From Tubulanus polymorphus (Eukaryota; Animalia; Nemertea), in NCBI RefSeq assembly GCF_964204645.1, contig NC_134036.1, forward strand, positions 7,974,812 through 8,038,811: DNA of 64,000 nt, read 5' to 3'. The notes beneath the pieces are model-generated. The model worked only from the letters and a program-made list of their open reading frames with translations, ran no database searches and had not been told where the DNA came from. Below, piece after piece: positions 6,835-46,920 of the stretch. The position numbers and the translations under genes were made by a program. Every line of letters starts with the position of its first letter. Positions within the stretch are counted from its first letter, which is position 1.

Positions 6835-6839
6835 GAAAG

Positions 6840-11780: not shown

Positions 11781-12113
11781 AATTACCTGTTACAAATTAA
11801 ATCAATTCAATTCAATCAAATTATATTTGTAAATAAAATTCTTACGGAAAAAAAGAAATCAGGGATAACCCCCAAACCGAACGGACTCACCGTTACGAGA
11901 GTGAAAACTCCCTAATATCCTAATTCCCAGATTTTTACGGCGAAAAAATCCAACGCGTTCTACTGCGAGAACGCCAAGAAAAAAGATGATTTCGCCGGTG
12001 GCTAAATGCAATACCGCAGGGCCGGGTCGTATAGAAAAACCATTGGCGATAAATCCAAATTTAGAAAATATTGGCAAAAACCATAGGAAAGGGTACAGTA
12101 CTCGATGGAAATA

Positions 12114-23125: not shown

Positions 23126-26100
23126 ATGGAGAATGAACCACAGCCAGATGTCAATAAAAATGTCAATAAAAATCAATATTATTGTCAATATTGTAAAAAA
23201 TACATCGATAAATCCCAAAAATCACGACATGAAAAATCTGCAAATCATATAAAAAATGTAATAGATTTTGAAACTCCAGAAAATTCCAATGAAAGAAAAG
23301 AACGATTAGAAAATATGAATGTGGATGAAATAAAATGTGAAGTTTGTAATGAATTTATAGTAAAAGGGAATTATAATAGACATCTCGAATCACAAAAACA
23401 TTATAAAAATTTAAATAAAAATGTTTTAGGATCAGAATATTTTGATAATAAACCTCAACAAGTAAAAAAATCAACTTCAAAAACTAAATCCGTTTCAAAT
23501 AAACCATACATGGAAAATGTTAGAAATTATATTGATTCACTAGAAATAAAAGATACAATTGAAATTTTAGAAACATTACATAGTAAAATTGGTCCTGCAG
23601 CTATTATATTTAGATTTTTTAAAGGTACAACAATAGAAGATTATAGTACATTTAATGAAATAATAGAAAAAATACTAGATTTGATAACAGATGTTGAATA
23701 TCCAAAAATTAGTATCTCTGGGAAAGTAAGTTTTATAAAGTCAGAAGATAAAATGGATTATAATATTCAAACACTCTCTGAAGAAATAATTTCAAAAACA
23801 CATATAAAAGAGAAGTTAGAAAAAATATTTAATGAATTTAAACGTCATATTGAAGAAAGATATTTTGAGGGTTCTGGCTTAACATTGAATGAAATTATAT
23901 ATTTAGATTTAAATGTTTATAATACAAAAAGAAATAAAACATCAAAAAGTAATAAAATGTTTAAAAATGATTCAAACTTTACAACAGAAAAGGATATTAA
24001 AGCATCATCTTATATTTAATTACCATTTACAACAGAAGCAGTAATAAATATTCAAAATGAAGATAATAAATGTTTTCTATGGTCAATTATTAGTTGCTTA
24101 CGTCCAACACAGGAAAATGTTTGTAGAATAACAGATTATCGGAAATATGAAACATTATATAAAATTGATCAATATCCAGTAACTATAAAAATGATTTCTA
24201 AAATAGAAAAAGTTAATAATTTAAAAATAAATGTATTCGAATTAATGCAATTACCAAAGACAAAAGGTGAAAATATTAAAGATTATACATTGGAAGCTTT
24301 ATATTTAAATGATATAATATTTAAATAATATTATGATGATGAAAATGCTATAGATTTGTTATATTACAAAAAAGATGAAAATGAACATTATATGTGGTTA
24401 AAACAAATTGATTTATTCTTTAGAACAGAAAGTGATCACCATAATAAAATTTATCTATGTAGAAAATGTTTATCTAAATTTATGACTGAGAATACATTAC
24501 TAAAATATAAAGAATTATGTGATAATAAAGATTTTTGTAAATTAATAATGCCAACAGAAAAAGATTATAAATTGAAACTTACTAATCATAAATTTAAGAA
24601 TATTGTTCCATTTGTAATTTATGGGGATTTTGAATCGTTGAATAAAGAATTAACTGATCAAGATAGAAAAGAAATATATAACAAAAAGCAATTATTAAAA
24701 TCAATGGATAAAGGAAATGAATTAAATGAAGACACAATACAAGACCCACCAATTATAAATACAATTAAAAAAGTTCATCAAAGAGCTGCTGCTTATGGAA
24801 TTTATATAAAATCAAATTATCCTGAATTATATGAAAGTCAATATATTTCTTTTAGAGGTGAAAATGTAGTTAATGATTTTTGTGATAAAATGATTGAATT
24901 AAAAAGTGATTTTGCAAAATTATTAAACAAAAATAAAAGAATAGTTATGACAAAAGAAGATGAAATTGATTTTAATTATGCAACTCATTGTTGTTATTGT
25001 GAAAAACGTTTTAATTCATTTGATAAAAGAGTTAGAGATCATGATCATTTAAATTCAGAATATCGTGGAGCTGCTCATGAAGATTGCAATTTACAAGCTA
25101 AGAAAGTTAATTTCGTACCAATATTATTTCATAATTCATCAGGCTATGATACCCATCTATTTATAAAACAATTATCGGGAAAATTGGGCGCAATTAATCA
25201 AGAAATAGAAGAATATAATGCTATGAATGGTGTAAATGTAAGAAAATATGATTTTAAACTATTAGCTAAAACATCTGAAAATTATATTTCATTTCAATTT
25301 GGTTGCATTAGATTTTTAGATTCTTATAGATTTCTAGCAAGTTCATTAGATAATTTATCAAAAAGTTTAGTTGATAATGATTTTGTTATAACTCGATATT
25401 ATTATCCAAATGAACAAGATTTTAAATTATTGAGATATAAAGGTGCAATTCCTTATTCATTTTATAAAACACACAATGATTTTAATGTAACAGAATTATT
25501 AAAAGATCAATTTTATAATCAATTAAAAGAGGAGTATGTGAAAGACGAAGTGTTTAATAGAACATTAAATATTTGGAAACATTTTAAGATGAAAAACCAT
25601 GGTGAATTAGTTGATTTATATTTAAAATCAGACGTTATGATATTGGCTGACATATTTGAAAAATTTAGAGAAGTTAATTTGAATCATTTTAATGTTGATC
25701 CTTGTTATTGCTACTCTAGTCCTGGTTTAACCTGGCAATGTGGTTTAAAATATACAAATGTAGAATTAGATTTATTAAAAAAACCAGATATGGTTTTATT
25801 ATTTGAAAAATCAATTAGAGGTGGAATTAGTGGTGTTATGGGAGATAGGTATTTTAAAGCAAATGATGAATATAAATTATTATATATTGACGCCAATAAT
25901 TTATATGGTTGGGCAATGATGCAACCTCAACCATATGAAAATTTTATATTAACAGAAGTTGAAAATGATGATAAAACTGATTGAGAAAGCGCAATTGCGA
26001 GTTCAAAAGATGAAGCACCAATTGGTTATTTCTTTGTAGTTGATTTAGAATATCCTGAAAATATAAAGTTTAAAACAAGAAACTTACCTTATTGCCCAGA

Positions 26101-28203
26101 ACATTTAACTGTAGATGATAGTTATTTAAGTGAATACCAGAAGAAAATAAAACCGAAAGATCATGTTTTTACAGAAAAATTAATACTTACTCAAAATAAT
26201 AAATACAATTATATTGTTCATTATAGAATGTTAAAATTTTATCTAAAACAAGGAATGAAATTAAAGAAAGTACATAGATATATTGAATTTAATCAATCGA
26301 AGTGGTTAGAAAAATATATAGATTTCAATACTCAACAGAGAACAATATCAAAAACAGATTTTGAAAAAGATTTCTTCAAAATAATGAATAATAGTTTTTA
26401 TGGTAAAACGTGAAAATATTAGAAATAGAAATGATATTGAATTAGTAAATAATTCTGAAAGATTAAGACATTTACAATCAAGTCCTAGACATTTAGGAAA
26501 TAAAAGATTTGAAGATTATTTAACAGCTGTTAAATTAAAAAGAACATCAATGAAATTTAATAAACCTATATTTATTGGTTCGACTGTTTTAGAAGTATCA
26601 AAATTATTAATGTATGATTTTTATTATAATGTTTTACAACCACTTTTTGGGGAAAAGCATATTGGAATATTATATTTTGATTCTGTAACAGCTGACACCC
26701 CAATATTATTAAAATGTAATGATAAAATATTGATAAGAAGAATTTCAGAAATAATTCCAAAACAAAATGAATGTTATATTTCATATGGAGAAAAATAATT
26801 AATACAAATAAATGGATTAATGGATGTTTGGACAAGAAATGGATGGAAAAAATTAAAGAATATTATTAGACATAAAACAAATAATAAAATCTATAGAGTT
26901 AGAACTAAATTAGGGTTCGTAGATGTTACAGAAGATCATAGTTTAATTAAACGAAATGGCGATGAAATAAAACCAACTGATATAAAAATTGGAGATGAAT
27001 TATTACATAAAAGATTTTTCCAAAGAATGAATCATATGTCATTTGATGAAATAATTGATAATATTTATAATATAGAACCCGAAACATTAGAAGAAAAAGA
27101 ATATTTTATCAAAGGATTTTTCATGGGTGATGGTTCAGCAGGTGTGTATAATTATGTTAATCGCACTCAATATTGCTGGTATTTATGCAATCAAGACTTA
27201 AAATTATTAGAAAGAATTAAGAAATTCTGTGAAGAAGTTTATTCACATAAAACATTCAAAATCATAGATGTTATGAAATCATCGCAACGTTATAGAATAC
27301 ATGTGAATAATCCTAAAGATTTTGCTATAAAATATAATAACGAATTCTATATTCATGCAATAGTGAAAAGTAATACTTCAACTAAAGAAAAGATAGTTCC
27401 AGATTATGTATTAAATGCAAAAAATAATTTAAGAAAATGGTTCTTCATTGGATTCTACGCAGCCGATGGTACTAAAAGTTTCAAAAACCGCAAAACAATA
27501 TCTTTAGCTCAAAAAGGAAAAGTTGCTATATCAGGATTAAATATATTATGCAATTCATTAGGTTTTAATATGAATATTGGATTGATTAAATCTAAACCAA
27601 ATTGCTTTAATTTAAGCCATGTAGAAAATGAGTTAACTGAAGAAGTTAAAGATTTATTTGAAATATATAACCCAACAGATTATGTTTATGATTTATCAAC
27701 TGAAGATGGTACATTTAACTGTGGATTTCCATTAATAGCCAAAAATACTGACGCCTACATACTAAAAATCAAGACAAATGACATAACAAAAGACTTAAAA
27801 ACATTAAAACATCATTTTGATTTTAGCAATTATCCCAAAGATCATGAACTATTTAGCAATGATAATAAAAAGATTCCTGGTAAATTTAAAGATGAATTAG
27901 GGGGTGATGAAATGATTCAATTTGTTGGGATAAGAAGTAAAATGTATAGTTACAGAACAAAAGATCATGAAGCTAAAAAGTTAAAAGGAATAACAAAACA
28001 TGTGGTTGATAAACATATAGAATTTCAAGATTATATAAAGTGTTTATATAAATCAATTGTAATGAAACACAAAATGAATTGTTTAAGATCAGAAGATCAT
28101 GAGATGTACATTAATGAAGTTGAAAAAAACTAGTTTAAATCCATTTGATAATAAAAGGCATATTTTAGATGATGGTATAAAAACATTACCTTATGGTCCT
28201 TAA
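23126..28203 (+). pseudogene. Polinton protein-primed family B DNA polymerase (N-terminal Zn fingers, endonuclease VII-like insert, intein)
   Basis: VINIQNEDNKCFLW, YGDFES, RDHDHL...GAAHEDCN, FHNSSGYD, RFLDSYRF, IRGG, YIDANNLYGWAM, KIMNNSFYGK, YFD/TD, GKFKDE, RSKMY, KLKG, FDNKR, TLPYG. In-frame stops at 24017, 24326, 25982 and 26796; frameshifts at about 26410 and 28125. Confidence 0.95.
26682..27746 (+). mobile_element. Intein with LAGLIDADG homing endonuclease in PolB motif C (355 codons, one in-frame stop)
   Basis: YFD|SVTADTPILL (block A), VDVTEDHSL (block B), FIKGFFMGDGS and FFIGFYAADGT (LAGLIDADG blocks C and E), YVYDLSTEDGTF (block F), LIAKN|TD (block G, +1 Thr). Removal restores YFDTDAY. 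Confidence 0.93.
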
Positions 28204-28559
28204 AACATAAAATCAATATCATCATACTCGAAATCACTATTGGCTTCTTCATTTTCATTTAATTGTTCAGGTTCTTCTTCCATTCCATTTTTCTCATTTA
28301 AATAAAGTTCTATCTTGTTCCACATTTCATCTCGCTCTCTTTGTTTCTTTTTGTTTGTTAATTCATCAAATGGAATTATAATATCTATGTTTAAATAATT
28401 TACAATCTTATTTAAAAAGAATTCATAATTTATTGAATCTGTTATTCTATTTTCTAAATGATACATTAATATTTGTTTGAATATTTTTTTTATATTTTCC
28501 GTATCTTCTGATAATTTAGGTTTTTCATAATAATCGTTAAATAATAAATATAAATACAT
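28200..28559 (-). CDS. Polinton hypothetical protein with acidic tail (119 aa)
   Basis: Open AT-rich ORF convergent with and abutting the PolB stop. Confidence 0.5.
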   Translation of the reverse strand: MYLYLLFNDYYEKPKLSEDTENIKKIFKQILMYHLENRITDSINYEFFLNKIVNYLNIDIIIPFDELTNKKKQRERDEMWNKIELYLNEKNGMEEEPEQLNENEEANSDFEYDDIDFMF

Positions 28560-28575
28560 TTTCTTTTGTTTTGTG

Positions 28576-29446
28576 TTAATTAAATGTTGACGGAATAATT
28601 GTATTTATAATATCTTTTTTAGTTATTTCACCATTTTTATTTTCTATTATTTTCATTTTTTCAAGCCATTGCATATATTCTGGTGTATGATCTTCCATAG
28701 AAAATATTTTAAAAATTTCATCTAGATAATTTAATTTTGGATCTATGAGAAAATCTCTAGTTTTTTCTTCACCCAATAAATTCTTTTGCCATCCACATTC
28801 ATTACAAAATAACACAGTACCTTCTTGTCTTAAGGTCGCATAACTACATTGTGGACATTTTCGTTTATAATTTATTGGTAATATATCTTCATTAAGCTCC
28901 TGGTATTTTCTTACGTTTTCTTTATGTTTTATTGTTCTATTATGTAGATTTGAATTACTTGTTGTAATAATCAATTTACAATATTTACAATAATATGTTT
29001 TTCTTGTTAATTCATTATATTGTTTTTCTAACTTTTCAACTGTTTCTTTATTATCTGGTAACGTTTTCTCATATTTTATTTTTTCTAATAAATTATTTTT
29101 TCTTTCATTGAATTCAGTTTCAAATTTATTAGAAATTTTATCTATATGTGCTTTACGAAATTGATGATTCTCCCAATCTTCTATATTTTCAGGGGTATAT
29201 TTTATTCGACAAGGCTCACAGAAATGATCTTTTATATTATCCTTATCATAGAATAAGAAAGGTCTTTTCAAATAACTTCAGGTTCAACTTCGGCAGAATT
29301 ACTATTACTTTCATTACTATTAACATTAGCCGTTGCGCCATTAATTCTACACTTCTCAGAATGTTTTTTAACATAATTTCTTGAGAATAATTTATTACAT
29401 TTTGGGCAGTTTATTTTAGGGGGTTTATAATTTTCATCATGTTTTT
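28576..29446 (-). pseudogene. Polinton multi-Zn-finger protein, 3' part (frameshift at about 29270; 5' part at 43164-43235)
   Basis: CPKC...H..KC, CEPC...H...H, CKYC...H...H and CPQC...CNEC motifs. Confidence 0.65.
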
Positions 29447-30648
29447 GGTTTACCTTTGTCAGCGATATGAAGTTGGCATTGAGCCAATTCATGTAAAATC
29501 GCGGTACGTTTTTTTATGTGAGCATTTGTTTCATTGGTTCTCGGTTTAAACGACGTATAATCGATGCGATTGAAGACATGGCGAACCTCCGTCGATGTAC
29601 ATGGTCAACTTTGTTAAAATTCTACGAAAAACTGTTTTTGGCGGGAAAATTCTTAGCTCTCGCGTATAAAATTGCAATGACCTCGATTGGGGGGCGTCGT
29701 CTCTACGAGCGAATGTGATTGGCTGTTTTTGCTGCGAGGTATTAGACCGACACACGTACGCAGTTTGCTCAGCTGACGCAATTAAATAGTTCGTTATAAA
29801 ATGAATTATGTAGGCCTAGTTGTTGATATGTTACATCAAAGCTTGGTTCAGTTTTGTGGTAGCGTATAGAATTATCAAAAAACGTCATCATCTTTCGAAA
29901 GCGGTTTATCGGGCCAAACGAAAGGATTCAATAAAGCCAGATTCATGCGCAGGTATTTCACAATCAACTACATCGTCATTTACATCGCTCTCGGTAAGTC
30001 AAGTTTTCTTTCTATAAACTGTTAAAATTATATTACTTGTGGCAGTGACAGCTTTCGAAAATCACATGTTTGTCATTCTAAGTGTTCAAGGGTTTGCTAA
30101 GTGTAGCTTTCATTTTACGAATTCTACACCGTGGTTTGTAATGGACGGATTATTATTAACACGTGCGATCAATCATGGCGGTGCCGTCATGAAACGTACT
30201 GTTGCCATTGTTAAGAGCGAGAAAGTGTCTGTCTCTACCCATTGTTTGTACGAGTCTAGCTAGGCCTAATTAGTCAATTTTTGTCTTTAGTAACTGATTT
30301 GTGGGAATTGAAAATCAGATTTAGGCGTACTGAACATTTTCACTAAATACATGGCCGTGGTCAGGTGAGTACGTCGCAGAAATAACAACATAGCCGTTAC
30401 GGCTCAAATCGTTTTTCTGTAGTAGAATCTCTCAGATGATCACTCATTTTTCATCAACTTATTGTCGTCATTTATTTTGTTTGATAGGCTTATGTGTTGA
30501 GGTATTATGATATTTTAAGGGCTTGTTAGAAACCGTGCAGCGCACGTGGTGCTGTATTATACAGCACCACGTGCGTATACAGTATATACTATCAATAGTA
30601 TGTAGTATACATACACTTACATGCGTCGTGTCAGGAACTGACAGCAGT

Positions 30649-30784
30649 TCTCTTCACACACTTCTCTTCACACACTTCTCTTCACACACTTCTCTTCACA
30701 CACTTCTCTTCACACACTTCTCTTCACACACTTCTCTTCACACACTTCTCTTCACACACTTCTCTTCACACACTTCTCTTCACA

Positions 30785-30860
<76 letters not shown>

Positions 30861-30862
30861 CA
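30649..30862 (+). repeat. Compound repeat: (CTTCTCTTCACACA)n, (GCAC)n, (CA)n
   Basis: Read directly. Confidence 0.97.
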
Positions 30863-32945
30863 CGTTGGGCTCTGCACTGCTCTCACCCTATCTGCATTGA
30901 ATATAAATATATTGTTTCATGCAGTTTCAAAAAAACTTTCAATGAATTGAAAATTATTATATTGCATAATCATTTGAAGCATACACATTTGTCATACCAT
31001 CCATTTTGCTAGTGTGTTCTACTCACACTACTTGATCAATTTTATATCAATGAAACATGATTCAAATATAAGTCATTGTTGACAAATATTGAGCAATAGA
31101 AATTTATTGTTATGCCCTTGACTTTACTTGAGAGGGCCCGTATTACAGAATTACCCGCATCTGAATACGTGCTGCAAGTGACCTTAACAGCGTAGAGGCT
31201 GCAATTGTTGACCTATTTATTTCAAACTTGATACACATTAGGATATCACTTGGGCCAGAACTATTTATTCGATTCAAATTACGGCCACCAGGGGCTAGTG
31301 TTAGTGATTGGCAAGTAACTGTTGCAAGTAAAGCAGCCAGCTTAAGAACACATTAATGCTATTAGGCTACCCAAACTGATTGTCTGTGCGAGTATCACTG
31401 TGAGTTCACCGAACAAAGTTTTCACCTTATGCATATAAAATTTGTCTAATAGTGTCTAGATAACAAGATCCAGAGCATCAACGATGAAACAATTTTCAAC
31501 ATTCATAATGAGACAATCTATCGAATATACACTACCAGCTTTACAACGCAGTCAGTCGCTAGAATGATTGGCAGTAGTTTGGAAGGCAGCCAATTTCCTG
31601 GAAACTTAAATTAGGCCACGCGTCTGAGGCACGTTTTCACATCACTGACTGCAGTACATTTAAATATAACCACTGATCACAGCTTTTATACTATCATCGA
31701 TATCAGATGAAATATTTCATAGCTGTCGCAGGATTCTTACTAACAGTCGGATGCGATAGCCTTTTTTGAAAGCCCTGTTTAAGTAGGGTATCATATGGGG
31801 CAGAACCCTATTCAAAATCTGGTTAATTCAATTCAAATTATGACCACCAGGGGCTGACATAAAAAATGACGTTAACAGCCTAGGGCAACAAATTTTTTTG
31901 TATACTTTGTACACGACTAGGGTATCACTTTGGACAGAACCTTATAAAAAATTGGGTTGATGCGGTTAACATTATGGCCACAATGGGGCCGACATGATAA
32001 ATAATGTTAGCAGTCTAGAAGCCGCAATTTTCTTAAAACTTTATACACGATTAAACCTTTACTTGGGGCAGAGCCCTATTAAGGATTAAGTTGAATTGAT
32101 TCAAATTATGGCCACCAGGGGAAAACAGCCTAGAGACTGCTACTGTTGATAATTTTTTTACACTTTGTGAACATGTTGTTTAATATCATTCTTATAGAAA
32201 TAATTGTGGCAACAATATTTCTAACACATTTTACCACAAATCCTGTAACTTCACATGTGGGCCAGCGACATTCAGGCAGGGGGCATTTGAGGCTTTGCCT
32301 CAATCTAGTTTTTCAATGCGTCAATATCAAGTTTCAAGTTATTCACTTAAAATGTATTGAAACATCAATGATACTTCATTCATTTCAAATAGAGTATTCT
32401 TGAAATACTACAAAAAAACTTTCCTAACCATTGTAACTACCAAAAATCTTCAGTAAATTTAATCATACATATTATAGGTGAAGTGAACTTCAAACATTTC
32501 AAAATTAATTATATTCTCCCTATTATCTTACTGTTGAGTACTTGGGTGTTCATACAGATTTTATTTTCGTCTAGGAAAAACTTGTCCTTTCCATATTAAC
32601 AATGTTACATGACTCTGAATTTTCTTTTTCAGGTTGAAAACAGTAGGAAGAAAATCGTAAGTATTAGCTGAACATTGAAATGCTTGACCACCATAACTGA
32701 CTAAAGCAAGACAATATTAATTGACAATTGCTTGACAATATCACATGTAATGCTTCATAACTGACATGATCATACTACATACTACTTGACAAAATAAGAC
32801 TGATATAAATCAACTGCCTACAATGATGCACATTAGACAGAACAATTATGCCATTATAAACTAAACAGTCTTTCAATATCAGACAAAACACAAATTGACT
32901 CACTAACAACATAATTAAATCTGGGTTAAGGACAAATAAACAGGT

Positions 32946-35900
32946 ATGGACTCCTTGCAGAACTATCGCTGTTTAGTTGGTAATTATTACTGTAGGGCAG
33001 TATACAAAAGCCAGTCTGTATGCCATTCATATGTTAGAAATAGTGGCAATTTAGTTCAAGCAACTGGTGCAAAATTTGTAGCATCGCAATGGCTGGCCTG
33101 TCTGTATTACATGTATGCGTCTAAAGTTTATGATATCTGTGAAATGAGAAGAAAGTGTAGTTATTATGCATCTATATGGATTATACAATTGTGCATATAT
33201 AGGAATCACTTCATGTGTAGAAATGAGCAATCATGTTTCCCTTGTACTCCATTAGTGACATCATTGCATGAAGATTCTACTATACTTCTAGCAAATGATG
33301 TTGAACTCAACCCTGGCCCTGTACTAACAGGTGCATTTCACCAAGGTGATCCAACCATATTTTCTGCTGATTCTGTAGGAAAACAGTGTGTTCCTATTGC
33401 AGCATGTTGTATTTTATTTACTTTGTTAAAGCAAAATATGAATACTTGGGTAAGCAGTGATCTTGATAATATACTCTTACAGGGTGATAAGTTGTATAGG
33501 GATATAACTGACAGAAGCAATCAAGGCTATTTATTTGCAAATGATATTCCTCTTTATCTTTCTTGCTTTGAAGCACATTTTATTTTGAAGTCCAAGAAGA
33601 ATTTAGTGGGAGTATGTGTTAGTGTCAATGAAAGCTTAGGAATCCCAAGTGTTGCAGAAGTACTCAGTAACTACTTAGTCATCAATTCAAATTGTATAGC
33701 TATATTAGGCACAAATGCATGTGCTTTATTTGTAAGGAATGGTAAATATTACCTTTTTGATTCTCATAGCCGCAATACCTCAGGTTTCCCTTGTGCTGAT
33801 GGATCATCAGTTTTACTAGAATTTGACAGTCTGATCAATATTTTGGATTTCATCAACACATATATAAGCTCTATTAATGCTGCAGCTTATGATGTATCAT
33901 TCTATGATGTTAAATTGATTTCAAAGAAAGCTTATATACTAGGTATAAGAAGTCATACAATTGTTAAAGCTCCGAATACCAGTGATACTGTCCATGCAGC
34001 ATCTACTAGACCATCTTTGTCCAGTTTTAGAAGTTTATCATCTGTTCAATTGTACCTGGACGATCAAGCAAAAAAATTACAGGAAAAACTTAAGAAACGA
34101 TCATACATGAGGTCATACATGAGATGTTACAGAAAAAATGATGGTAAATTGCATATTAATAAGACGCAAAAACAGAAATGTCATGAGAGGTACCTTAACG
34201 ATAAATCATCGAAAAAAAAAACTTCAACAAGATCAACAATTAAAGACAAAGTTATATTTCCTAGGAAAAGATCACATAATCAAAGTGTACCACAAAGTAA
34301 TGTCAAACTCAAACAATCTAGAAATGGATCCATGTCTTATGGAATTTCATCCAATAATGACCATGTGTCAATCTCTAACTCAGAATCTACATGTTTTCAT
34401 GATTCTTTCTCAGCTGACTATTCGGCTTTCCTAGCAGCAGTTGAATGTGGGCCTGCTTATGTTTGTTCAGTATGCCAGCAAACATGGTTCAAGGTTTCTG
34501 TTTCAAAAGTTACTGCTTCAATTAATGCTAAAAACAGCCATTTATTGAATGATTGCCTTACACACATTATCTCTCATGAAAAAGAAGAATGGATATGTGT
34601 TACCTGTTTAGCAAATATAAACAATGGACTTATTCCGCGCTTATCTGTAAAAAATAAAATGGGATTCCCTATCAAACCACCAGAGTTGAATATTACGTCA
34701 TTAGAAGAAAGGCTCATAGCACTTAGGATCCCATTTATGCAAATACGACAACTCCCAGTTAATCAGCAGAAATTTATTCGAGGTGGAGTTTGTAATGTCC
34801 CAGTTGCCATTGAACACACTGTCAATACATTGCCTAGGAAAATAAGTGAAAGTCAAACTGTAGCTGTTCAAATTAAACGAAAGCTAGCCTACCGAACTGT
34901 TGAGTTTGCCGAGAATATTCGCCCTCTAGTAGTCATACGAGCATTAAAGTGGTTGTTAGACAATAGCCATTTATACCAAAATTCTGGAGTCTGTATTAAT
35001 GACCATTGGCTTTCATGCTTACATACTAATGATCCCGAGATACAACCTTTTCTTGAAGGTAGAATTTCTGATTCGAAAAAGAGACAACCCCAAAATCAAA
35101 ATCCACCTGAATCAGATTCAGACAGTGATGATGATGGATTTATAGAAATTGATAACAAAGAACAGCAATTAGAAAACATGGATACACTATTAGATGAAGT
35201 TGATCCAAATGTCTTTACATATGCTCCAGGAGAAGGCCAGCATCCCTTGGGACTATATACGGATAGTGACTCGGAATATTTATCTTGGCCTACAATATTC
35301 TGTGGCAAAGTGCGTCCTGATAACTCCGAGCGATATAGGCCAGTGCATTACAGTGATATCTGCAAGTACGAACTCCGCTGCATTGATAGGCGAGTTGCCT
35401 CAAATATTCCTAACATCTTTTATAAACTAAAAAAATTGCAAATATAACAGGTTTCAGACAAGGCGTCTATCTCAGTGCGTAGAGTAAAAACAAGGGGTAA
35501 AACGTATACAGCCGGTGATCTTGCAGATGAAACTGTTCGAGACAACATGGTCAAATTGGATGAAGGTTATCATATTTTCAAGTCAATCAGAAATACCCCT
35601 GCATACTTATCTAAACGTAAAAGAGATCTGTTTGCTTGTATTCGACAACTCGGTTTCCCAGCAATATTTTTAAGTCTGTCTGCCGCTGATACTAAATGGA
35701 CTCCACTTTTAAGAACTCTGGGTATTCTTATAGATGGAAAGCACTACACTGATGATGAAATAAAAAACTTTGATTGGAGAACCACAAGCCGCCTCATCAG
35801 TAACGACCCAGTGACTTGCGCAAGATATTTTGATCATAAAGTACAGCAATTTATAAAGCTAGTTCTCAAAAGTAAAAATAATCCGATTGGAAAAGTTTCT

Positions 35901-38900
35901 GACTTCTTTGCCAGAATAGAATTTCAGACCAGGGGTTCACCACATGTACATATGACAATATGGCTACATGATGCTCCAGTCTTTGGAGAAGATTCTGATT
36001 TGGAAATAGTTGACTTCATTGACAATATCATTTCAGTTTCATCTAATGTCCCACTTAGTGAACAAAAGTACCTTGAATATCAACGACATAAACATTCACA
36101 AACTTGTCGGAAAGGTAGGACAAAATCTTGTAGATTTGGATACCCACAACCACCAATAACCACTACTACGATACTTTACCCACTTGATATTGATTCTGCT
36201 GATAATCAATACAGCTTGCCACTGCATACACTTCAAGAATACTACACTCAAATTATTGAGGTTTTGAATAGCTATGGTGACGGCTCTGATATCTCTTTTA
36301 AAAATTTCCTTCAAAATGATCTCAAGATGTCTGAAAATGAATATGTTGATGCTATCAGATCTTCCTTATCAAAACCAAAAGTTTTCCTAAAAAGATCACC
36401 TAATGAAATTAGAATTAACCCGTACATGAAAAATCTTTTGGGTATTTGGCAAGCAAACCATGATATCCAATATGTTTTGGATGCGTACAGTATGGCGGTG
36501 TACATTGCAAGTTACACCTGCAAAGGACAAAAAGCTATGAGTACTATATTAAAAACTGCCTGCAAAGAAGCAAGAAATGACAATTTAGACTTAAAAAAAG
36601 CAGTCAGGCACATTGGCAATAAGTTCATTAACTCAGTTGAAATCGGCGCTCAAGAGGCAGCTTATCTTACTTTACAAATGCCCATTACTCGATGTTCCCG
36701 AGAAGTGGTTTTCATAAACACTTCACCACCAGATGAACGTACATATCTTTTAAAAGATTTGAACAGCCTAAAGAAGTTGCCAAAAAATTCAACTAATATA
36801 GAAGTTGACAACATATTAGTTCATTACTCAAGACGACGCCTTGAATTGGAAAATTATTGCCTTGCTCAATTTGTTTCTGAGGTTCAAAACCACAAATCAT
36901 CCACTTATGAGACCAGCCAATATGATGATAACATTGATGATGACCCTCCTTGTGATGGCCTTTCTAGCAATATGTCAGACAGCCAAGTAAAGCTAAAACC
37001 AAACGCTCGAATTATACGCTTTGTTAATTACAACAAACGCTCTGACCCAGAAAATTTCTTTCGAGAACGTTTATTGCTGTACGTACCATGGCGCAAAGAA
37101 AAAGACCTTCTACGTGACTTTGATTCTTATGAAGCTGCTTTCAAATCCTACACAGCACAAATCAGTATGATGATGAAAAAGTTTGAAGCACACAATGATG
37201 ACTTGAAATCAGTTATAGAAACTATGGATAATTTAAATGTAGATACTGATGAACAGCTACCTGACAATGACCAGACTTTGAGTATGGAAAGTATGTTCTT
37301 TGATCCTGATCGGCCAATTCACCAACGCATTTATGACTTGGCACCAGACATAGGTTTGACATCAGTGAACTACAATGTTGAAGTTTCTCTCCTTCCTAAA
37401 AGAATTACTGAACCTGAATATCATGCATTATTGCAATCACTAAATAAGAGACAGAATGAAATATTTACACATATAGCACAGCATATAAATCGAACTAATG
37501 ATGAAAGTCTCCATGTTTTTTGTACAGGCTCGGCTGGATGTGGAAAATCTATTGTAATTAAGGCTATACATCAGTACTTGTTGCGCTCTCTATCCTCTTT
37601 ACCAGGAGAAAATCCTGACGATTGTAAAGTCCTTCTTTTGGCCCCTACCGGTATGGCTGCTTATGGTATTAATGGCTCCACAATTCATGGTGCCTTTAAG
37701 ATCCCACCAAGTCGAGGATACAAGTATGAGCCGTTGTCAGCTAGTTCTTTAAATGCTCTGAGAACTAAGTACATGAACTTACAAGTAGTCATAATAGATG
37801 AGATTTCAATGGTTGGTGCTTGTATGTTTTATACAATTAATCTACGTTTGAAAGAAATAATGGGTAATCAAAAGATATTTGGAGGCGTACATATTATTAC
37901 CTTCGGCGACCTCTACCAATTAAAACCAGTGATGGATAGGTTTATATTTCAACCAGTACCTAAAGAATATGCTGCATTTGCTAATAATCTATGGCTAGAC
38001 AATTTTAAAATCTACGAACTTCATCAGATTATGAGACAAAAAGAAGATTTAGCTTTTGCTGAGCTTTTGAATCGTTTGAGAACCAACAATTTGTCCCACT
38101 TAGACAAAGGCATTTTAAAGTCTCGTATAGTCTCTTCATCTGATACAATATATCCTAAATCTGCTCCACATTTTTTCCCTCTAAAAATCCAAGCTCAGAA
38201 ACACAATGACCAGATATTTAATGCTGTCTCATCAGTTAAAGTATCAATAAAATGTACAGACGTTGTCTTAACAGATATATGTAGTTCAGTAAAAACTAAA
38301 GTATTATATGCCTGTGAAAACTGTAAAACTTATATAGATGCAAGTGGCCTTCCAAGAATTTTAAACGTTGCCGAGTCATTGATTTACATTACAACAGTTA
38401 ACATTTCAGTTGATGATGGTATAATTAATGGATCTGAATGCACTGTGAAAAAAATACAATTTGATAATAATACCAGTGATCGACCATCCATAATATGGGT
38501 AGAGTTCCGTAATACTGATGTAGGCAAACAACAAAGAAACAAATATAGATGTTTTTTTACTGACCAGATAACTGCTAGCTGGACTCCAATATTTGCACTG
38601 AAACGTTCATTCACTGTCAGAAATGTCACTGTTCAGAGAACTCAATTTCCACTTATGCCCAGTTCAGGCAGAACAATTCATCGTGCCCAAGGTGGAACAT
38701 TTGACACAATAGTTGTTGACATGAGTACTGGAACCAAAACACCTGCATCCATACTAACTCATTCACACTATGTTGCCCTCAGTCGTGTAAAACAATTGTC
38801 AGGTTTGCACATACTTAATCTAAATGAAAAAAAAATATCTGTATCTTCACATGTCATCCAACATATGGAATATATGTGCCAACACAGACAATTACAGCTA

Positions 38901-39593
38901 TGTTACACACCACTGTATTTAACTTTGCCTTTTGCATTAAAAATCATATATCAAAATGCTAGGTCATACTCAAAACATTATCTTGATATCAAAGACAACC
39001 CAAATGTCAAAGCTGCTGACATAAGTGGATTTTCTGAGTCAAGACTTATTTGTTCTGACCAAGAATCTGAACTTGACATGCCCGGCTACAAAATTATTCG
39101 CAATGACATGCCCCAACATCTTACTACTGCATTTAGACCACCACATGGCCTAATTGCATACTACAAAAGCAATATACACCTTCTAGAATCTTATGTTAGC
39201 AGCCAGGTCAACATAGAATATACATACATTTGTCTGCAATATATGCACAGACCTCACCAAATTGTCTTCGTTTACGTGTCACCACAATGTTCATTAGAAA
39301 CCCTATTCTACTCTATGAATGCATTGTCAAATCACCTAGACTTGCATAGCCCATTAGTAATTATGGGAGATTTCAACATGAAATCCATCGTTCATTCAAC
39401 TGACTACAATGACATATTAGCTGGGTTCATGGTAAACAAGTTTAATTGCCACCAACTTGTAAAACATCCAACAACTAAACATGGGAGCACACTTGACCTC
39501 ATCTTCACTAATGTGTCTATGTCCAACATTCAAGTAGGAATTATTGACACCTACTGGTCAGACCACAGTATGATTTACTGTTCTTTATTTTGA
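32946..39593 (+). CDS. Helentron RepHel polyprotein: 2A-like peptide, herpes-tegument-type deubiquitinase, HUH Rep, Pif1 helicase, AP endonuclease; one in-frame TAA at 35445
   Basis: ORFs 32946 and 35475 are in the same frame. DVELNPGP; GAFHQGD, GKQC, YLFDSHSR; FLSLSAAD, EFQTRGSPHVH, YIASYTCK; GSAGCGKS, IIDEISM, GDLYQLKPV, TIHRAQG, YVALSRV; QNARS, GDFN, TLDLIFTN, SDH. Confidence 0.93.
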
Positions 39594-39719
39594 ATACAGT
39601 AAAACTCTAATAGGCTATATCTGTACCACTGCATTATTCATTTCCTGTCTGCAAATGATAAAAAAACACTAAAAATCATCTGAAATACTTGTAACCAATT
39701 ACTTCTTATTCTTTTACAG

Positions 39720-42151
39720 ATGCTTTCTCTAAAACACGTTGTGCTCAACAACAGCAAATTTTATACCAAACCTGTGAAAGTCCTGATAGCTGCTAAACAA
39801 CTAAACCAGCGTACAAACAAATATGAATATGCAATCTGTGATGAAGAAAGAACGTGCAAGGCTATAAGTTATGAAGACTGCATAGATAGAAAATTAAAAG
39901 AAGGCGACTCTGTGCTTCTAAGGAATTTTGAAATGGGAAAGAAACATATGCTACTATCAAAAAAGTGTGTTATTACCAAAACAAAAAAGGTCAATGTTCC
40001 TCAAAAAGTAGTTGAAGAAGCCAGAGCTTTAATTATAGAAATAGCTCCAGTGGCACGTGATATTGCCGAAATCAAGTTCAATGATACTGACTCCAACTTG
40101 TCCAGTATAACTGGAAGAATTGTAAAGGTAAATTAATAACATCCAGAATCACTTTTCAAACATGTATACAAACATTAGACCTTTATGTACATAAGAAATT
40201 GACTTATGATGCTCAGAGCCTCTATAATTTATGAATAGCTACCATACTGCATTCATATGTAAAAATAAACTATAAATACCTTAGCTTGCTTTGTGGTAAT
40301 TATGCCACAAAGCATTCATGTCCAAAAATATTTCATGTCCGGGTTAGGGAATTATTGGCCACGTAATAGCTGTCCAGCCAAAAAGTTCTGATTTGATAAT
40401 CAGGTATGCTCTCATGCTGTTAAATTAATCCCCAGCTAAGCTGTCCAATAATTAATGTCCAATTAAACTTTTATGAATATTCAGTCACATGACAGGATAT
40501 AAACTAATCATAATCAACTGTAAAAATACTCATTTCAGGCCTATTCACTATATTATTGAAGATATTTCTTGTAATAATTACAAATATTTCTGTTTTACCT
40601 TATTTCCAGGACGAAGAACCTAGGGATGTTAAAATTACAGCCACTGGTGCTAACATTAAAGTCAGAAACATCGTTGTAGAAGACAAAACCGCCAATATTG
40701 ACGTTGTTTTGTGGGCAGACAAATCTTCATCTCCAATAAAACTAGGTGACAGTACTACCATCACACACCTGCGAACTGCTACAACCAAAGATAATATCAA
40801 ACAACTCAGATCAACTTATAAAACAGAAATCACAGTAAGATAGCTATTCATAAAGATAATTTTCAAAAATAAATTTCTCATGACGCCCCTACTTACGCAC
40901 AAAAAACCTTTAAAAAGACCTAAAAAATCTTATCCATATAATTGGACACCACCTAAATCTTATTTTCATGTTATTTGCATATGTTATTTTCAGTTAAAAA
41001 CTCCTGAGGTGACAATCGCAAATGTTACCTTCCTGGGCATTGAATCAGAAACTCCTCTACTCTACTATGTATCATCAATTTCAACAGATGATGAAGTTAC
41101 CACTTATTCCGTAGAAAAGAACCTACTTCTTCAAATAATCAATTTCAATGGAAATCAAGGCATGGAACAAGACGTCATTGAATGCATGACTGAAATTGGA
41201 CAAATTCAACTAAAGATTTTAGGTATTCTAAATGATTTTCATAAAAACGATATCTGACATATATTAAACTTTGCCTAATATGCTACAAGATATTCTACAT
41301 TTAGTTCAAACTGGTTCAAAAATAAATATATTTCCTGTTTGTACTGTTCAAGATGTGCAAGCTTACCAAAATATAACCATATATTTGTCTGTACTAATTA
41401 AAATTTGCAAAATCCAGCATTACCTCTATCGACAGAACCTGCTAATGTATTGTTCTAAATATTGATTTCAAAATTTGTAGGATATTATATGAAATTATGT
41501 AATTATTAAATTACGTATGTATATTTACAGGTGACACCATCATAGGTCTGGCAGAATATGACCTACAAAAACAGCCTAAAGCCTCCACCTCTGGTAAATT
41601 ATATTTCCTCCAAAAAAATACACATCATTAGTTAATAGCTGGCTAAATCAAAAATTGAGTCTAAACTCAAACTTCTAAACAAATTAAACTATACGTGCAA
41701 GGTCTAAAACTAAATGCATGTAATCCGATCATTAAAAATAACCTGTTTGTACATATACTTATTCACTTCATTATTAGTTAGAAACAAACTTTCAGTATGT
41801 TTTGATACTCATTGTTATAAAATTTTTACTATCCCTCCTCAAATATCCTGCAATATTATTATGCAATTGCTAATTTTCATGATCCAATCACTGCAATTTT
41901 CTTCCATGATAACAAAAATGATTTAAATCAAATTACTAGGAAATCCCCTCATATATACTCCCCACCACTTAATGCCCAAAAAATTTCTGGTAACATATTT
42001 ATCATGGCAACGTGAAAAATGGTCTAATAAATATTTTAATTTGGCAGGGAGTAACAAACCAGCTGTCACAACTCAAAACAATGTTTATGAAGATCCTGAC
42101 GCCCGTCTACTGGATGAGGATGATGATTCTGATGCTTGCCTGCTGGATTAG
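39720..42151 (+). CDS. Helentron OB-fold ssDNA-binding (RPA-like) protein, 5 predicted exons, about 342 aa
   Basis: GT-AG exons 39720-40127, 40610-40834, 40994-41222, 41531-41593 and 42048-42151 join in phase. OB-like strings (YAICDEERT, SITGRIVK, VRNIVVEDKTANIDVVLW) and an acidic tail EDDDSD. Confidence 0.75.
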
Positions 42152-42470
42152 AATATCTATGTACAACTTGTGTTATCAAATCATTTCTGTTACTTTAACG
42201 TAATTTTAAATAGTACGACGACAATAATTCCAATGTTAGCCTACAGGATTAAAATATCTAGGTCCAACAGGTGTGATCAAATCATTTCTGTTATTATATC
42301 TTAATTTTATACAAATTTGAGAACAATAATTCCAACGCTAGCCTGCGTTGTTAATATCTATGTCATTTCTGTTAATATATCTTAATTTTATACAAATTCG
42401 AGAACATTAATTCCGACGCTAGCCTGCGTTGTTAATATCTATGTCATTTCTGTTATTATATCTATTACTA
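42152..42470 (+). repeat. Degenerate 80-100 bp tandem repeats (3-4 copies) in the Helentron 3' region
   Basis: aatatctatgtcatttctgtta...aattccaacgctagcctgcg recurs. Confidence 0.8.
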
Positions 42471-43163
42471 TATTTTTATAGTCTTTGCTTCTATACACTT
42501 GGCAACTTCAATTTTATACACTGTAATAGGATTTTGGGAGGCAGCCTTATTTGGTTAATACGTCCAAACATAGAAATCAATTTAATCAACAACCATTCAA
42601 CGTCTGATGATGTCATCCATGTTAAACGAATCATAGTGTTATAGGACAAATCTCTTTATAATGCTAATTCACTGTATTTACCTATAAGCATTTATTCATT
42701 TTTAAAATGTTAACAGAGTTATTTTATCACATATTGTTATTTGATAAGTATTATTTTTGAATATGTAATAAATAAATTTAGTTTCTATACAAAATTTATA
42801 TATTTTTCTCATTTTACTAATTGGTATCCTTGCAACCATCAGCACAACCAAAAATTTGAGACTTCATATATTTATTTCCTAAATTAACAAACCAAGACAC
42901 AATATTTGACAACAATTATTGAATTTTAACTTGATTTATTCCTATTCAAATGTGTATTTGTTGTTAATTCTTAATTGATTAAATATAACTTGTACGTACT
43001 GCCATATATTCAACTATGTATATTTACTGAAGAATCCACTTAATTAGGAATTACAACAATTTATCCCATTTACACGAGTCTGTATTAAAAGTGAATGACT
43101 AACTATCGACAACAAACTAACTGATACTATTCAAGGTAAACCACTTTGCCTCAGGGCAATTTA

Positions 43164-43235
43164 TTTCATATGTCGAGCCATATTACTTTTTCTTAGAAGT
43201 TCACCACAAATTTCGCATGCTATCTTCTCATCCAT
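43164..43235 (-). pseudogene. 5' end of the Polinton Zn-finger gene split by the Helentron
   Basis: MDEKIACEICGELLRKSNMARHMK joins KHDENYKPPKINCPKC at about 29446, completing a C2H2 finger. Confidence 0.8.
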
Positions 43236-43303
43236 TTATTTAGGAAAAATTTTATTAAAATTAATTTTTAGTGATGAGCAGTAATTTTTTTATGTTATAA
43301 ATA

Positions 43304-44062
43304 ATGGTAGAATTAAAAGAATACAGAATATTTGTTGATTCAAGAAAACTTACAAATTATAAATCTCATAATTTACTAGTACAATTAGATAGAGAATTTA
43401 AGAATTGTGTAGATTTAAAATTAGTTAATATAAGTTTATGTAATTCTTTTTATAATATATCGAATAAAACTATTGAACATAATACTTTTTTAATTCATAT
43501 TAGAAATATAAAAAAATGGTTTCATCTATTTCTAAGACCAGGATTATATAATTTAGAAACATTAGCTCAAGAAATTAATCGTAGAGCACGGTTGAAAATT
43601 AGAAAAGATGATAAATTTTTAATAAGATTTATAAAAAGTGATAGCTCAAATAAAATTAAAATAAAGGTATTTGATGAAAGTCAACATGCATTTATAGTAA
43701 AAAAACCATTAGCTAAATTGCTAGGAATTGCACCAGATGTTGTTACAGTAAACGTAGAAGGCATTTCAAATATAATACCTTTTACACACTTTTATATTTA
43801 TTGCAATTTAATTGATCCTACAAAAACATTTGAAGCAACTAAAGATACAACATGTAATTCTAGTATATTAAATATTTTACCATTGAAGAATGTTAAACAA
43901 TTTGGAGCGCAAATAAATTATAATTTAACAGAATGTGATTTCAAACCTTGTATTCCACATTTCAATAATTTTAAATTAGAAATAAGAAATCATAATGGTT
44001 ATTTAATTGATTTGAATAACTTTCCTGTAATATATGAATTAGTTATAAGATGTAGAGAGTAA
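43304..44062 (+). CDS. Polinton minor capsid (penton-like) protein
   Basis: Intact 252 aa. IFVDSR, NSFYNI, GLYNLETL, YIYCNLID and EIRNHNGYLIDLNN follow the pattern of single-jelly-roll minor capsids; the gene context agrees. Confidence 0.7.
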   Translation: MVELKEYRIFVDSRKLTNYKSHNLLVQLDREFKNCVDLKLVNISLCNSFYNISNKTIEHNTFLIHIRNIKKWFHLFLRPGLYNLETLAQEINRRARLKIRKDDKFLIRFIKSDSSNKIKIKVFDESQHAFIVKKPLAKLLGIAPDVVTVNVEGISNIIPFTHFYIYCNLIDPTKTFEATKDTTCNSSILNILPLKNVKQFGAQINYNLTECDFKPCIPHFNNFKLEIRNHNGYLIDLNNFPVIYELVIRCRE

Positions 44063-44078
44063 TTTTTTCATTATATAA

Positions 44079-44435
44079 ATGAATATAACTGTTGGGCCGA
44101 GCATATGTTTTGGATTTGATTTTAAACGTGAGAAAGAAATGAAATTTAACATTACTGATGTAATTACACATATTAAAAATATTGCATTTTCTAATGAAAC
44201 AACATTTGAGTATGAAACAACAATAGATAAAGAAACTTTAAATGTAGAAAAGATTACTAATTTAATTAGAGAATCTTTAAGATTTTATGAATTAGATGAA
44301 GATTTTATCATCGATGATATTAAAAAAATAATAATTGAAATATATACAAATGAAACTAGTAATGAAATAAATGTTGAATTAATCATAAATAAGTTAACTA
44401 AATATTTTGATGATAGTAATTTTTTTGATAAATAA
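44079..44435 (+). CDS. Polinton hypothetical protein (118 aa)
   Basis: Intact ORF with TAAATG start in the compact gene cluster. Confidence 0.55.
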   Translation: MNITVGPSICFGFDFKREKEMKFNITDVITHIKNIAFSNETTFEYETTIDKETLNVEKITNLIRESLRFYELDEDFIIDDIKKIIIEIYTNETSNEINVELIINKLTKYFDDSNFFDK

Positions 44436-44657
44436 ATGAGTGATAATAAGTGGATAATAACTGGATTATATAATGGCGCATTACTATCAGTTGGAACTGT
44501 TGGTTATTCAATGGTATTAAAAAAAGTATTCAAAATGGGAAGTGTTAATGTTGATAGATTTGATATCAATGATATCTTAAAATTAACATTAGCAGTTACT
44601 TTATCTAATTTAACTATTGATTATTTGGAAAAACAAAAATATATTCCTCCCATATAA
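44436..44657 (+). CDS. Polinton small hydrophobic protein (73 aa)
   Basis: Intact ORF, two hydrophobic segments, TAAATG start. Confidence 0.6.
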   Translation: MSDNKWIITGLYNGALLSVGTVGYSMVLKKVFKMGSVNVDRFDINDILKLTLAVTLSNLTIDYLEKQKYIPPI

Positions 44658-44681
44658 ATGCATAATTTTTTTGCTAAATAA

Positions 44682-45073
44682 ATGGCTTCTGCAATTATAA
44701 CTATTATAGGATCGGCAATTGTTAACGCTTTAGCATTTACTGGTGGTGGATATTTATTTAAACATATTGATAAAAATAGTTCATTAGGAGAACAAAGAAG
44801 ACATAATTTAGCATTAGAGAAATACAATAAAGCAGCAGAAGAATATAGAAAAAAACGACAAAACTATATGGATTACATCAATAAAGAATTATATGATCAG
44901 ATGATGCAATGAGTTTATATAACGCAGTAACAAATAAAGAAAAATTACATCTATACAGACCTAAATTATCAGATTATTATACCCCAAGTAAAGAACAACA
45001 GAAATATGAAATAATTTGGATTTTAGGTGGAACTGTTATTGTTATATTTGTTGCTTATAAGTTTACTAATTAG
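44682..45073 (+). pseudogene. Polinton small membrane protein, frameshifted at about 44905
   Basis: N-terminal hydrophobic AIVNALAFTGGGYLF, RRHNLALE coiled coil, and a C-terminal TM segment (IIWILGGTVIVIFVAY) in a shifted frame. Confidence 0.6.
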
Positions 45074-45092
45074 TAATTTTTTTTCTAAATAA

Positions 45093-45518
45093 ATGGAAGA
45101 TAATATTGATATTATTCCTCATGATATAAATAAAACTAAATTAAAAATATATTTAGAAAAACAAATATTAGAATTTGAAAGTGATTTAAAAGTTAAAAAG
45201 AAAAAATATTTAAAAAGTAAAATTATATATTATTTGATTATTAGTGGTTCGGTTACAATTAGTTCTGTAGTAACATTTCTAGCAATATTCAGTCCATTAA
45301 CACCTTTAGCTATATCAATTGGTGTATTAGGATTAAGTTCGAGTGTTTTAACCGGTATAAGTTCAAAATTAAATATAAAAAGTAATAAAGAAAAAATTAA
45401 AACTAATATAAAAAAAATTAATAAATTAAAGAACACACTAGATTATATAATAAGTTTAAATGGTCATATAACAGTTGAAGAACAAGATCAATTATTAAAA
45501 GAATTAATAAATTATTAA
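45093..45518 (+). CDS. Polinton predicted two-TM protein (141 aa)
   Basis: Central hydrophobic hairpin flanked by Lys-rich helices; TAAATG start. Confidence 0.6.
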   Translation: MEDNIDIIPHDINKTKLKIYLEKQILEFESDLKVKKKKYLKSKIIYYLIISGSVTISSVVTFLAIFSPLTPLAISIGVLGLSSSVLTGISSKLNIKSNKEKIKTNIKKINKLKNTLDYIISLNGHITVEEQDQLLKELINY

Positions 45519-45534
45519 TTTTTTAATTATATAA

Positions 45535-46904
45535 ATGGCAGATAGTTTTCCAAAAGCTTTCCAATATAATAAATCAATTAAATATAATATTCCAGCAATA
45601 GATTTTAATAAAGATGTTACATATAGAAATGAAGTTTTAAATTCATTAATTGATTTATATATTTATGTTACTGAAAGTAATAATTTTCATGTAAAGATGG
45701 AAAATATATTTCATGTAAAAAATTGAAAGATGAAAAACAATGGTTATTAAAATCTAATATGAAGTATTGGCAGAACCAATTAAATTTTGCTGTTTATTGT
45801 GCAACAACAGGATGTGGAATTAGTTGGAATGATCATTTGAATAATTCTAAATATAAATTAATTCAAAGTTTATTTAGATTTCATACATACTTTCAAATAA
45901 GAATAATATTAAATGAATTAGAGTGCGCTTTACCAGGATCAAGATATTTTAAAGAATTAGATAATAATATTAATTTATCAAAGTTTTATAAAATTTGTAA
46001 TGAATTTAATGAAGATATAAATAATTCTGATTTTAGAACAAAAATTGAAACAATAAGATCACTTCCTTGCCCTAAAAAGATTGCAGAATATTGTGCACTT
46101 CCCATACCATCTAATAGTTTGTATAATATCTATAGTCATAAATTAGGTTATGGTAAAATAGAAACTAAGGATTTAGAAACATTAAATTTTAATAAATTAC
46201 CGACATTTTATGATAATTTAAAACAAGAAAACAATAATGGTTGGGTTTATTTCATTTTAGAAAATAATGAAGGTTTTACTAAATCAGGTATACAAAGAAT
46301 AAATCAATCTATTAGAACTTATTTGATATGTATTTTAGGTGCGCAAGTTGAAACAAGATCACCAATAATTGGAAATTTGAATACATCATTCGATACACAG
46401 AAACAATTTAAAGTTTTATTTGAAGATTCAATTCATAATGATAAAAATAGATCGATTCCAGAAAACATTATAAGATATCAAAATTATTTAGATAAATCAC
46501 ATATTAGATTAAATTATTGTATAAGCCCTAATCTATTAATTATTTCTAATGATTTAGTATTAAAGATGGGAAATATAATTGGTTATAATAATCTAATTAA
46601 AACTGCAACAATAAATAATTCATTTGGATTAAATGATATAAATAAAAAGATTATTACTGCTCCAAAATTAATGGAAGGTGAAAAAAATAAAAAACATATT
46701 CAATCAACAGAAACTAAAACTAAAAATATTAAATTAAATAATGATTCTAAACCGGATTATAACACATCAGAAGATATAAAAACTGATATTATTCAACATG
46801 ATATAATTAAACTAAATGATGATAATAAATCCCATGAAAATACTAAATTAGCTATAACTTGTATAGGAATTGTAATCGGAGGAATATTATATTTTAAATT
46901 TTAA
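45535..46904 (+). pseudogene. Polinton hypothetical protein with C-terminal TM anchor, frameshifted at about 45720
   Basis: ORFs 45535..45726 and 45723..46904; WQNQLNFAVYCATTGCGIS; C-terminal LAITCIGIVIGGILYFKF. Confidence 0.6.
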
Positions 46905-46920
46905 TTTTTTTATTATGTAA

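Follow-up and report, generated by a model that had tools for sequence, protein, structure and literature searches.

Papers on 2A peptides compared here place StopGo in RNA viruses, retroelements and a few host genes. Could a rolling-circle DNA transposon use it as well? This question is raised by a locus of the nemertean Tubulanus polymorphus, in which a 2A-like motif stands directly ahead of a deubiquitinase in the transposase frame of a Helentron. We analyzed a window of 64,000 nucleotides (contig NC_134036.1, positions 7,974,812 to 8,038,811 of the forward strand), and all coordinates below refer to this window. The element and its parts outside the leader region are as follows.

29445 to 43163, plus strand: Helentron (HLE2) of about 13.7 kb, in a T run; skipped in reads and contigs of all four runs; ends uncertain by 2 nt.
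29446 to 29456, plus strand: 5' subterminal inverted repeat, 11 bp, reverse complement of 43133-43143.
32633 to 32656, plus strand: possible 24-nt 5'-UTR exon flanked by AG and GT, proposed from sequence only.
34464 to 35009, plus strand: two CxxC pairs (34464, 34590) and DUF6570 (PF20209, E 1e-16), the HLE2 marker.
35445 to 35447, plus strand: TAA in the window, a Lys codon in all reads covering it; assembly error or private allele.
35448 to 39593, plus strand: Rep (Helitron_like_N), PIF1 helicase and C-terminal APE endonuclease of the RepHel (Pfam E 2e-27, 1e-25 and 4e-10).
39720 to 42151, plus strand: predicted gene of five exons, which were placed by eye at GT-AG sites and form a single open frame; its product of about 340 aa would be an OB-fold (RPA/SSB-like) protein whose tail is acidic.
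43133 to 43143, plus strand: 3' subterminal inverted repeat, 11 bp, found in the sequence.
43146 to 43159, plus strand: 3' terminal hairpin with a 5-bp stem (DNA fold -4.4 kcal/mol).

The first-pass annotation had called this element a Helentron, and the Pfam domains of the RepHel, the terminal structures and an empty site in the reads all bear this out. At the element-free join, 134 X5 reads skip 29445-43163; the skipped part opens with TT and closes with TA, and T runs lie at the join. Subterminal repeats, a hairpin and TT insertion are Helentron/HLE2 features (Thomas et al. 2014, PMC4067079; HELIANO, PMC11417382), and we found all three here together with the other marks of HLE2 subgroup b, i.e., an HUH Rep and PIF1 helicase in one ORF (PF14214, PF05970), a C-terminal APE endonuclease fused to the RepHel (PF14529) and DUF6570, which serves as an HLE2 marker in PMC11417382. 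The order of Pfam domains in the RepHel is Herpes_teg_N, DUF6570, Helitron_like_N, PIF1 and, at the C-terminus, Exo_endo_phos_2. The OB-fold matches of the five-exon gene product are weak and below the Pfam cut-off (E 0.005-0.07).

In the window sequence the RepHel ORF is split by the in-frame TAA at 35445-35447, on which the first-pass annotation was silent. All 11 X5 reads and the X1 contig carry A at 35445, which restores a Lys codon and rules out the reading of the gene as a pseudogene. Because both samples lack the TAA, the 2215-aa VTD-DUF6570-Rep-PIF1-APE frame is open in X5 and X1. The Helentron looks young and intact. All X5 reads and X1 contigs also disagree with the window at 33636, 33682, 33953 and 34203, which, as with 35445, points to assembly errors or private alleles.

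Several further observations concern the element and its surroundings. A deletion derivative present in all four runs joins 31064 to 33559 and so lacks the leader, the 2A and the VTD's catalytic Cys. Read depth exceeds that of the coding region more than 100-fold at 29442-29731 and 10- to 25-fold at 31168-32568, with many loose ends; we offer the reading that these stretches belong to nested repeats or to non-autonomous relatives in high copy number. A repeat of 134 bp occupies 31784-32121. The flanks (23126-29444 and 43164-48311) form an AT-rich (GC 21-30%), intron-poor element with a match to protein-primed-type DNA polymerase B (PF03175, 24329-25984) and, where several of its ORFs begin, motifs of the TAAATG type, which suggests a Polinton/Maverick-like host element for the Helentron; copies of it that lack the Helentron insertion are present in the reads. 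One of its ORFs (26799-28133), which adjoins polymerase fragments, matches LAGLIDADG_3 (E 6e-7) and Intein_splicing (E 8e-6, below the cut-off) and is possibly an intein with a homing endonuclease. Elsewhere in the window, three GC-rich reverse transcriptase/RNase H elements with overlapping frames, two of them equal in ORF lengths and one reversed, occupy 3039-11789 and 49731-54959; they may be DIRS/Ngaro-like. At 20030-22660, a unit of about 154 bp is repeated in tandem, in 9-14 copies.

The 5' part of the RepHel frame contains the features on which the question turns.

32946 to 33317, plus strand: leader of 124 aa, ending at the Gly of NPG; predicted helical with low confidence, aligned to the relative P0163, no Pfam family.
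32964 to 32981, plus strand: leader motif [YW]Rxx[IV]G, aa 7-12, found in the window, P0013, P0163/P0166, L008 and L010.
33228 to 33320, plus strand: candidate 2A-like/StopGo element, a 30-aa context with the core DVELNPGP at 33297-33320; predicted release between Gly124 and Pro125.
33318 to 33926, plus strand: VTD deubiquitinase (peptidase C76, PF04843; Pfam E 8.5e-8) with Cys148 (33387), Asp272 (33759) and His274 (33765).

The core, which fits D(V/I)ExNPGP, lies on the plus strand in the frame opened by ATG 32946, and this one frame also carries GAFHQGD (33330), GKQC (33378) and FDSHSR (33756), as had been proposed. Of the longer LLANDVELNPGP that the first-pass annotation placed at 33297-33320, the core DVELNPGP is exact at that position, but the quoted LLANDVELNPGP begins at 33285. 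The window has no other NPGP in any of its six frames. Its composition predicts 5e-5 chance occurrences of D[VI]ExNPGP across all frames and 3e-6 in the RepHel protein, which rules out a chance match as the source of the motif. Over 32850-33641, a contig of run X1 departs from the window once, at 33636, outside the motif, and among 40 of the 68 listed variants none falls inside it. Because the X1 contig matches the window there, the motif is real sequence and not a sequencing artefact.

The domain behind the motif was assigned with the help of structure. In a phmmer search of the window protein against PDB, 8ADD (E 9.7e-5) was the sole match by sequence. The predicted model of residues 125-331 (pLDDT 86.6) has an M48-like fold: Foldseek matched it to the zebrafish Helitron VTD 8ADD (TM 0.85, E 8e-14) and to cytomegalovirus M48 2J7Q (TM 0.76-0.78). 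Cys148, Asp272 and His274 have their counterparts in 8ADD and do not vary across alignments A1 and A3. The window copy is thus predicted to have the VTD fold with an intact Cys/Asp-x-His triad, and the C76-like fold that had been expected next to the 2A is upheld by the PF04843 match and the similarity of the model to 8ADD. Helentron VTDs are known and active, and those of zebrafish Helitrons have been shown to cleave ubiquitin conjugates (Erven et al. 2022, PMC9741609). Model confidence changes across the cut site, with pLDDT mostly <50 in the leader and mostly 70-96 in the VTD, which places the predicted cut at the edge of the fold.

The first-pass annotation had also inferred that skipping would expose the deubiquitinase at a new N-terminus. 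A free N-terminus is probably unneeded: zebrafish DrT1-VTD2 is active though it is an internal second domain (PMC9741609), and in the relative P0166 no 2A accompanies the second VTD. Given the activity of DrT1-VTD2, exposure is unlikely to be required. As a by-product it is plausible, for many 2A-less relatives have their start Met right ahead of the VTD and thereby the same mature layout.

How widespread is the motif? A search with DUF6570-Rep gave 401 RepHels, of which the best 120 were examined, about 95 of them from one lineage; independently of this, a VTD-only pattern matched 17 loci in metagenome contigs, nine of which show the VTD start and upstream sequence. Our view of the prevalence of 2A rests on these 120 of 401 RepHel matches and the 17 VTD-pattern loci. 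D[VI]ExNPGP was detected in two of the best 120 of 401 RepHels (once in P0013 and twice in P0057), each time ahead of a VTD, and in P0166, a cluster member of the truncated P0129. Two of the nine loci with visible upstream sequence, the RepHel L010 and the short contig L008, bear it in frame. In all, the motif precedes a VTD in four other distant RepHels (P0013, P0057, P0166 and L010) and in L008, which answers the first-pass annotation's call for a check of conservation in Helentron homologues. The four RepHels have the order VTD-DUF6570-Rep-PIF1 and are 47-58% identical to the window in the Rep region. In long ORFs the motif occupies a conserved position, and it is absent from other lineages. 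Its chance expectation over the 355,419 residues of fetched proteins is 0.0006, versus six proteins (four lineages) observed, all of them with D[VI]ExNPGP upstream of the VTD. Judging from this recurrence, the motif has almost certainly been selected in several Helentron lineages.

Selection in several lineages does not mean general use. The 123 Rep regions (window and two further sequences included) formed 22 clusters at 70% identity, the largest with 99 members. Our sorting gave four clusters with the motif, six with a long N-terminus that lacks it, three with a Met just before the VTD (upstream unseen) and nine that are truncated. Because six of 22 clusters have a long N-terminus without the motif, it is optional and not needed by all Helentrons. 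The Pro and the first VTD motif are separated by four residues in the window, and by 12, 12, 16, 25, 30 and 100 residues in the others. P0057 carries a 2A before each of its two VTDs (aa 122 and 583), and in the first of these VTDs Ser replaces the catalytic Asp of Asp-x-His. The five carriers are scattered on a quick Rep tree, with 5 changes versus a shuffled mean of 4.8 and starred branches that force at least 4; with 12 of the 31 rows ending before the VTD and thus lacking a motif label, this tree is compatible with one gain followed by losses as well as with repeated capture.

Locus L016 (frame +1) has a degenerate DxxxxPGP directly before a VTD match at 280, with spacing near that of the window, a possible decayed or variant 2A. 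IMG/VR yielded no relative when scanned with the VTD protein or with alignments of VTD and Rep, and a GTDB scan gave one locus, ending before the VTD. Helentron RepHels were also seen in assemblies labelled Candidatus Thiodiazotropha (L018, P0114 and P0131); these are most likely host DNA in symbiont bins.

The leader is a different matter. The first-pass annotation described it as Cys/Tyr-rich and of about 124 aa; the length (124 aa) and the content (10 Cys, 12 Tyr) agree with this, but the Cys/Tyr-rich middle is poorly conserved, which rules out a conserved Cys/Tyr-rich protein. Among 2A carriers the leader measures 59-167 aa, and its conserved part is the N-terminal M..[YW]R..[IV]G, which is lacking at the called start of P0057. 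P0163 has two short blocks in common with the window leader, and the two proteins are 39% identical over the leader and half of the VTD. The window leader has no Pfam family and no confident fold (pLDDT mostly <50), and a search of the Atlas with the P0163 leader gave no match above 0.81. Among the 160 fetched proteins without a 2A, none has [YW]Rxx[IV]G. The supplement of a 2A screen (bioRxiv 2026.06.17.732966, PMC13405545) lists further sequences that begin in the same way ahead of a 2A: a short ORF of a cockroach, the tick non-LTR ORF1p KAH9367238, two proteins of sponges and proteins of Acropora. As far as these sequences can tell, leader motif and 2A are a cassette common to retrotransposons, Helentrons and host genes, and Helentrons may have taken it from non-LTR retrotransposons or may have a source in common with them.

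In every case seen the leader motif lies at least about 42 residues before the Gly-Pro junction, and it would therefore be outside the exit tunnel when the ribosome is at the skip site. An unlikely extension is that [YW]Rxx[IV]G and 2A work together as a two-part nascent-chain switch that is portable and has passed as a unit between non-LTR retrotransposons, Helentrons and host genes; in it, a cellular factor on the motif would set skipping versus fall-off versus read-through. If true, such a switch would explain inert-looking 20-residue versions and would represent a regulated StopGo setting transposase dose in a DNA transposon.

Would the window motif be active? In the L-rich StopGo class, (A/S/C)G is preferred before the Asp and upstream residues are essential (Li et al. 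2026, PMC12846837). The tract of the window, ILLAN, is aliphatic and short, with Asn at p11 (Ala-Asn before Asp) and polar or acidic residues preceding it, and its four hydrophobic residues at -19 to -10 are the fewest among seven Helentron-type motifs counted. P0166 and P0163 likewise have Asn before the Asp. Reporter data come from the screen of PMC13405545, in which 20-residue peptides were assayed in HEK293T cells and a classifier was 86% accurate on its training set; the peptide of the window was not among the supplement rows found. From the 48 rows of this supplement with NDVE or NDIE we dropped six with a non-canonical core, and by our own count the remaining 42 canonical ND[VI]ExNPGP peptides comprise 8 skipping, 9 fall-off, 5 reduction only and 20 inert. 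All five peptides ending NDVELNPGP had an effect (three skipping, one fall-off plus reduction, one reduction only), and their leucine tracts are longer than that of the window. The eight canonical coral-family peptides included five non-skipping, three fall-off and no skipping cases; one peptide of this family was traced to a leader-2A-VTD protein (XP_044182051), and the others were grouped with it by likeness only. According to the authors of the screen, peptides of the fall-off class group together with inactive and with bacterial ones (PMC13405545). The 20-residue context and the human host may understate 2A activity. By analogy with these peptides, clean cleavage by the window 2A appears doubtful in view of its weak upstream tract and of the fall-off and non-skipping results in the coral family, and attenuation would fit at least as well as clean polyprotein cleavage.

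Partial skipping or fall-off is the best reading. We propose, with about even credence, that the leader-2A cassette directly ahead of the deubiquitinase makes the ribosome release the 124-aa leader at Gly-Pro with partial efficiency, limiting transposase dose. When a ribosome reaches the Gly-Pro of DVELNPGP, the leader would be released in a fraction of passes; the products would be a Pro-initiated DUB-Rep-helicase-endonuclease, aborted translation and unskipped protein, and this mixed outcome would limit the dose of RepHel transposase. A lowered level of downstream product was proposed as a role of non-LTR 2A sequences (Odon et al. 2013, PMC3708506).

Alternatively, StopGo might be clean and efficient, with nearly all ribosomes freeing the leader and then continuing, such that the deubiquitinase is the transposase N-terminus and the leader a separate functional protein. 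We consider this possible but rather unlikely. Against it stand the weak tract of the window, the count of 0 of 8 for skipping among coral-family peptides, the activity of an internal second VTD (PMC9741609) and a leader that varies from 59 to 167 aa with neither family nor fold. On the other side are the canonical core, a cut four residues ahead of the fold, the three of five NDVELNPGP peptides classed as skipping and the relatives without 2A that often begin at the VTD; besides, the screen was made with 20 residues in human cells, and full activity of FMDV 2A needs >30 residues (PMC12846837).

The family might also use the cassette while the window 2A itself has decayed and is read straight through, the motif being left over from an ancestor in which it was active. 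Decay would agree with the polar and acidic stretch HEDST where a leucine tract is expected, with the inert result for 20 of the 42 comparable peptides and with the degenerate DxxxxPGP of L016 at the same place. Yet none of the seven fixed core positions has changed, despite strong divergence from P0163 elsewhere in the leader, Asn before Asp is shared with P0163, and the element has intact ends, an open RepHel in the reads and a predicted intact second gene, which makes decay decidedly improbable. Finally, retention of the motif as a protein feature (a protease site, perhaps for the adjoining cysteine protease domain, a targeting signal or a binding site) instead of a ribosomal signal is very improbable, as VTDs cut after the di-Gly end of ubiquitin, unlike NPG-P (PMC9741609), the same cassette stands ahead of unrelated domains (non-LTR ORF1p, sponge proteins), and P0057 keeps a 2A before a VTD with altered Asp-x-His.

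The element joins two parts that are each known already. Like the VTD-carrying Helentrons of HLE2 subgroup b (PMC9741609, PMC11417382, PMC4067079), the element has a VTD upstream of DUF6570-Rep-PIF1-APE in one ORF, a Cys and Asp-x-His triad, subterminal inverted repeats, a 3' hairpin, TT insertion and a second, OB-fold gene; unlike those described in these papers, it has a leader and a 2A-like motif before the VTD. The main text of PMC9741609 contains no occurrence of 2A peptide, 2A-like, ribosom or NPGP. The 2A sequences of APE-type non-LTR retrotransposons (PMC3708506) are similar in that a transposon ORF carries an L-rich D(V/I)ExNPGP close to its N-terminus, there 40-80 aa in and with variable activity, whereas the window motif belongs to a rolling-circle DNA transposon, lies 124 aa in and precedes a deubiquitinase, not an APE, PHD or ORF1 domain. 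With the viral L-rich upstream motifs 2 and 6 (PMC12846837) the window shares the core D-V-E-x-N-P-G-P and a short aliphatic tract upstream, and it differs in Asn for Gly at p11, the shortness of its hydrophobic tract and its location in a DNA transposon versus an RNA virus.

The closest case is Acropora XP_044182051 of the coral 2A screen, which has the leader motif, ANDVEENPGP and, by structure match, a VTD; its peptide was classed as fall-off, and the authors filed the protein as an ATP-dependent DNA helicase and not as a transposon (PMC13405545). The main text of that paper has no occurrence of helitron, helicase or tegument, the main texts of 2A surveys and of Odon et al. (PMC3708506) make no mention of Helitron, and the supplements of PMC12338488 contain none of five Helitron-related terms. 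Our literature search, whose scope lay outside subscription journals, theses, Repbase entries and the supplements of bioRxiv 2026.09.24.754024, found no paper tying 2A to Helitrons or DNA transposons. Within the literature searched, the combination of 2A and VTD Helentron appears to be new.

A recurring 2A in a rolling-circle transposase would extend translational recoding to DNA transposons, and it offers a testable way for Helentrons to control the amount of RepHel and of its deubiquitinase. The joint occurrence of leader motif and 2A points to a module of sequence that DNA transposons have in common with retrotransposons; it also points to an aspect of cellular 2A function to which short-peptide screens are blind.
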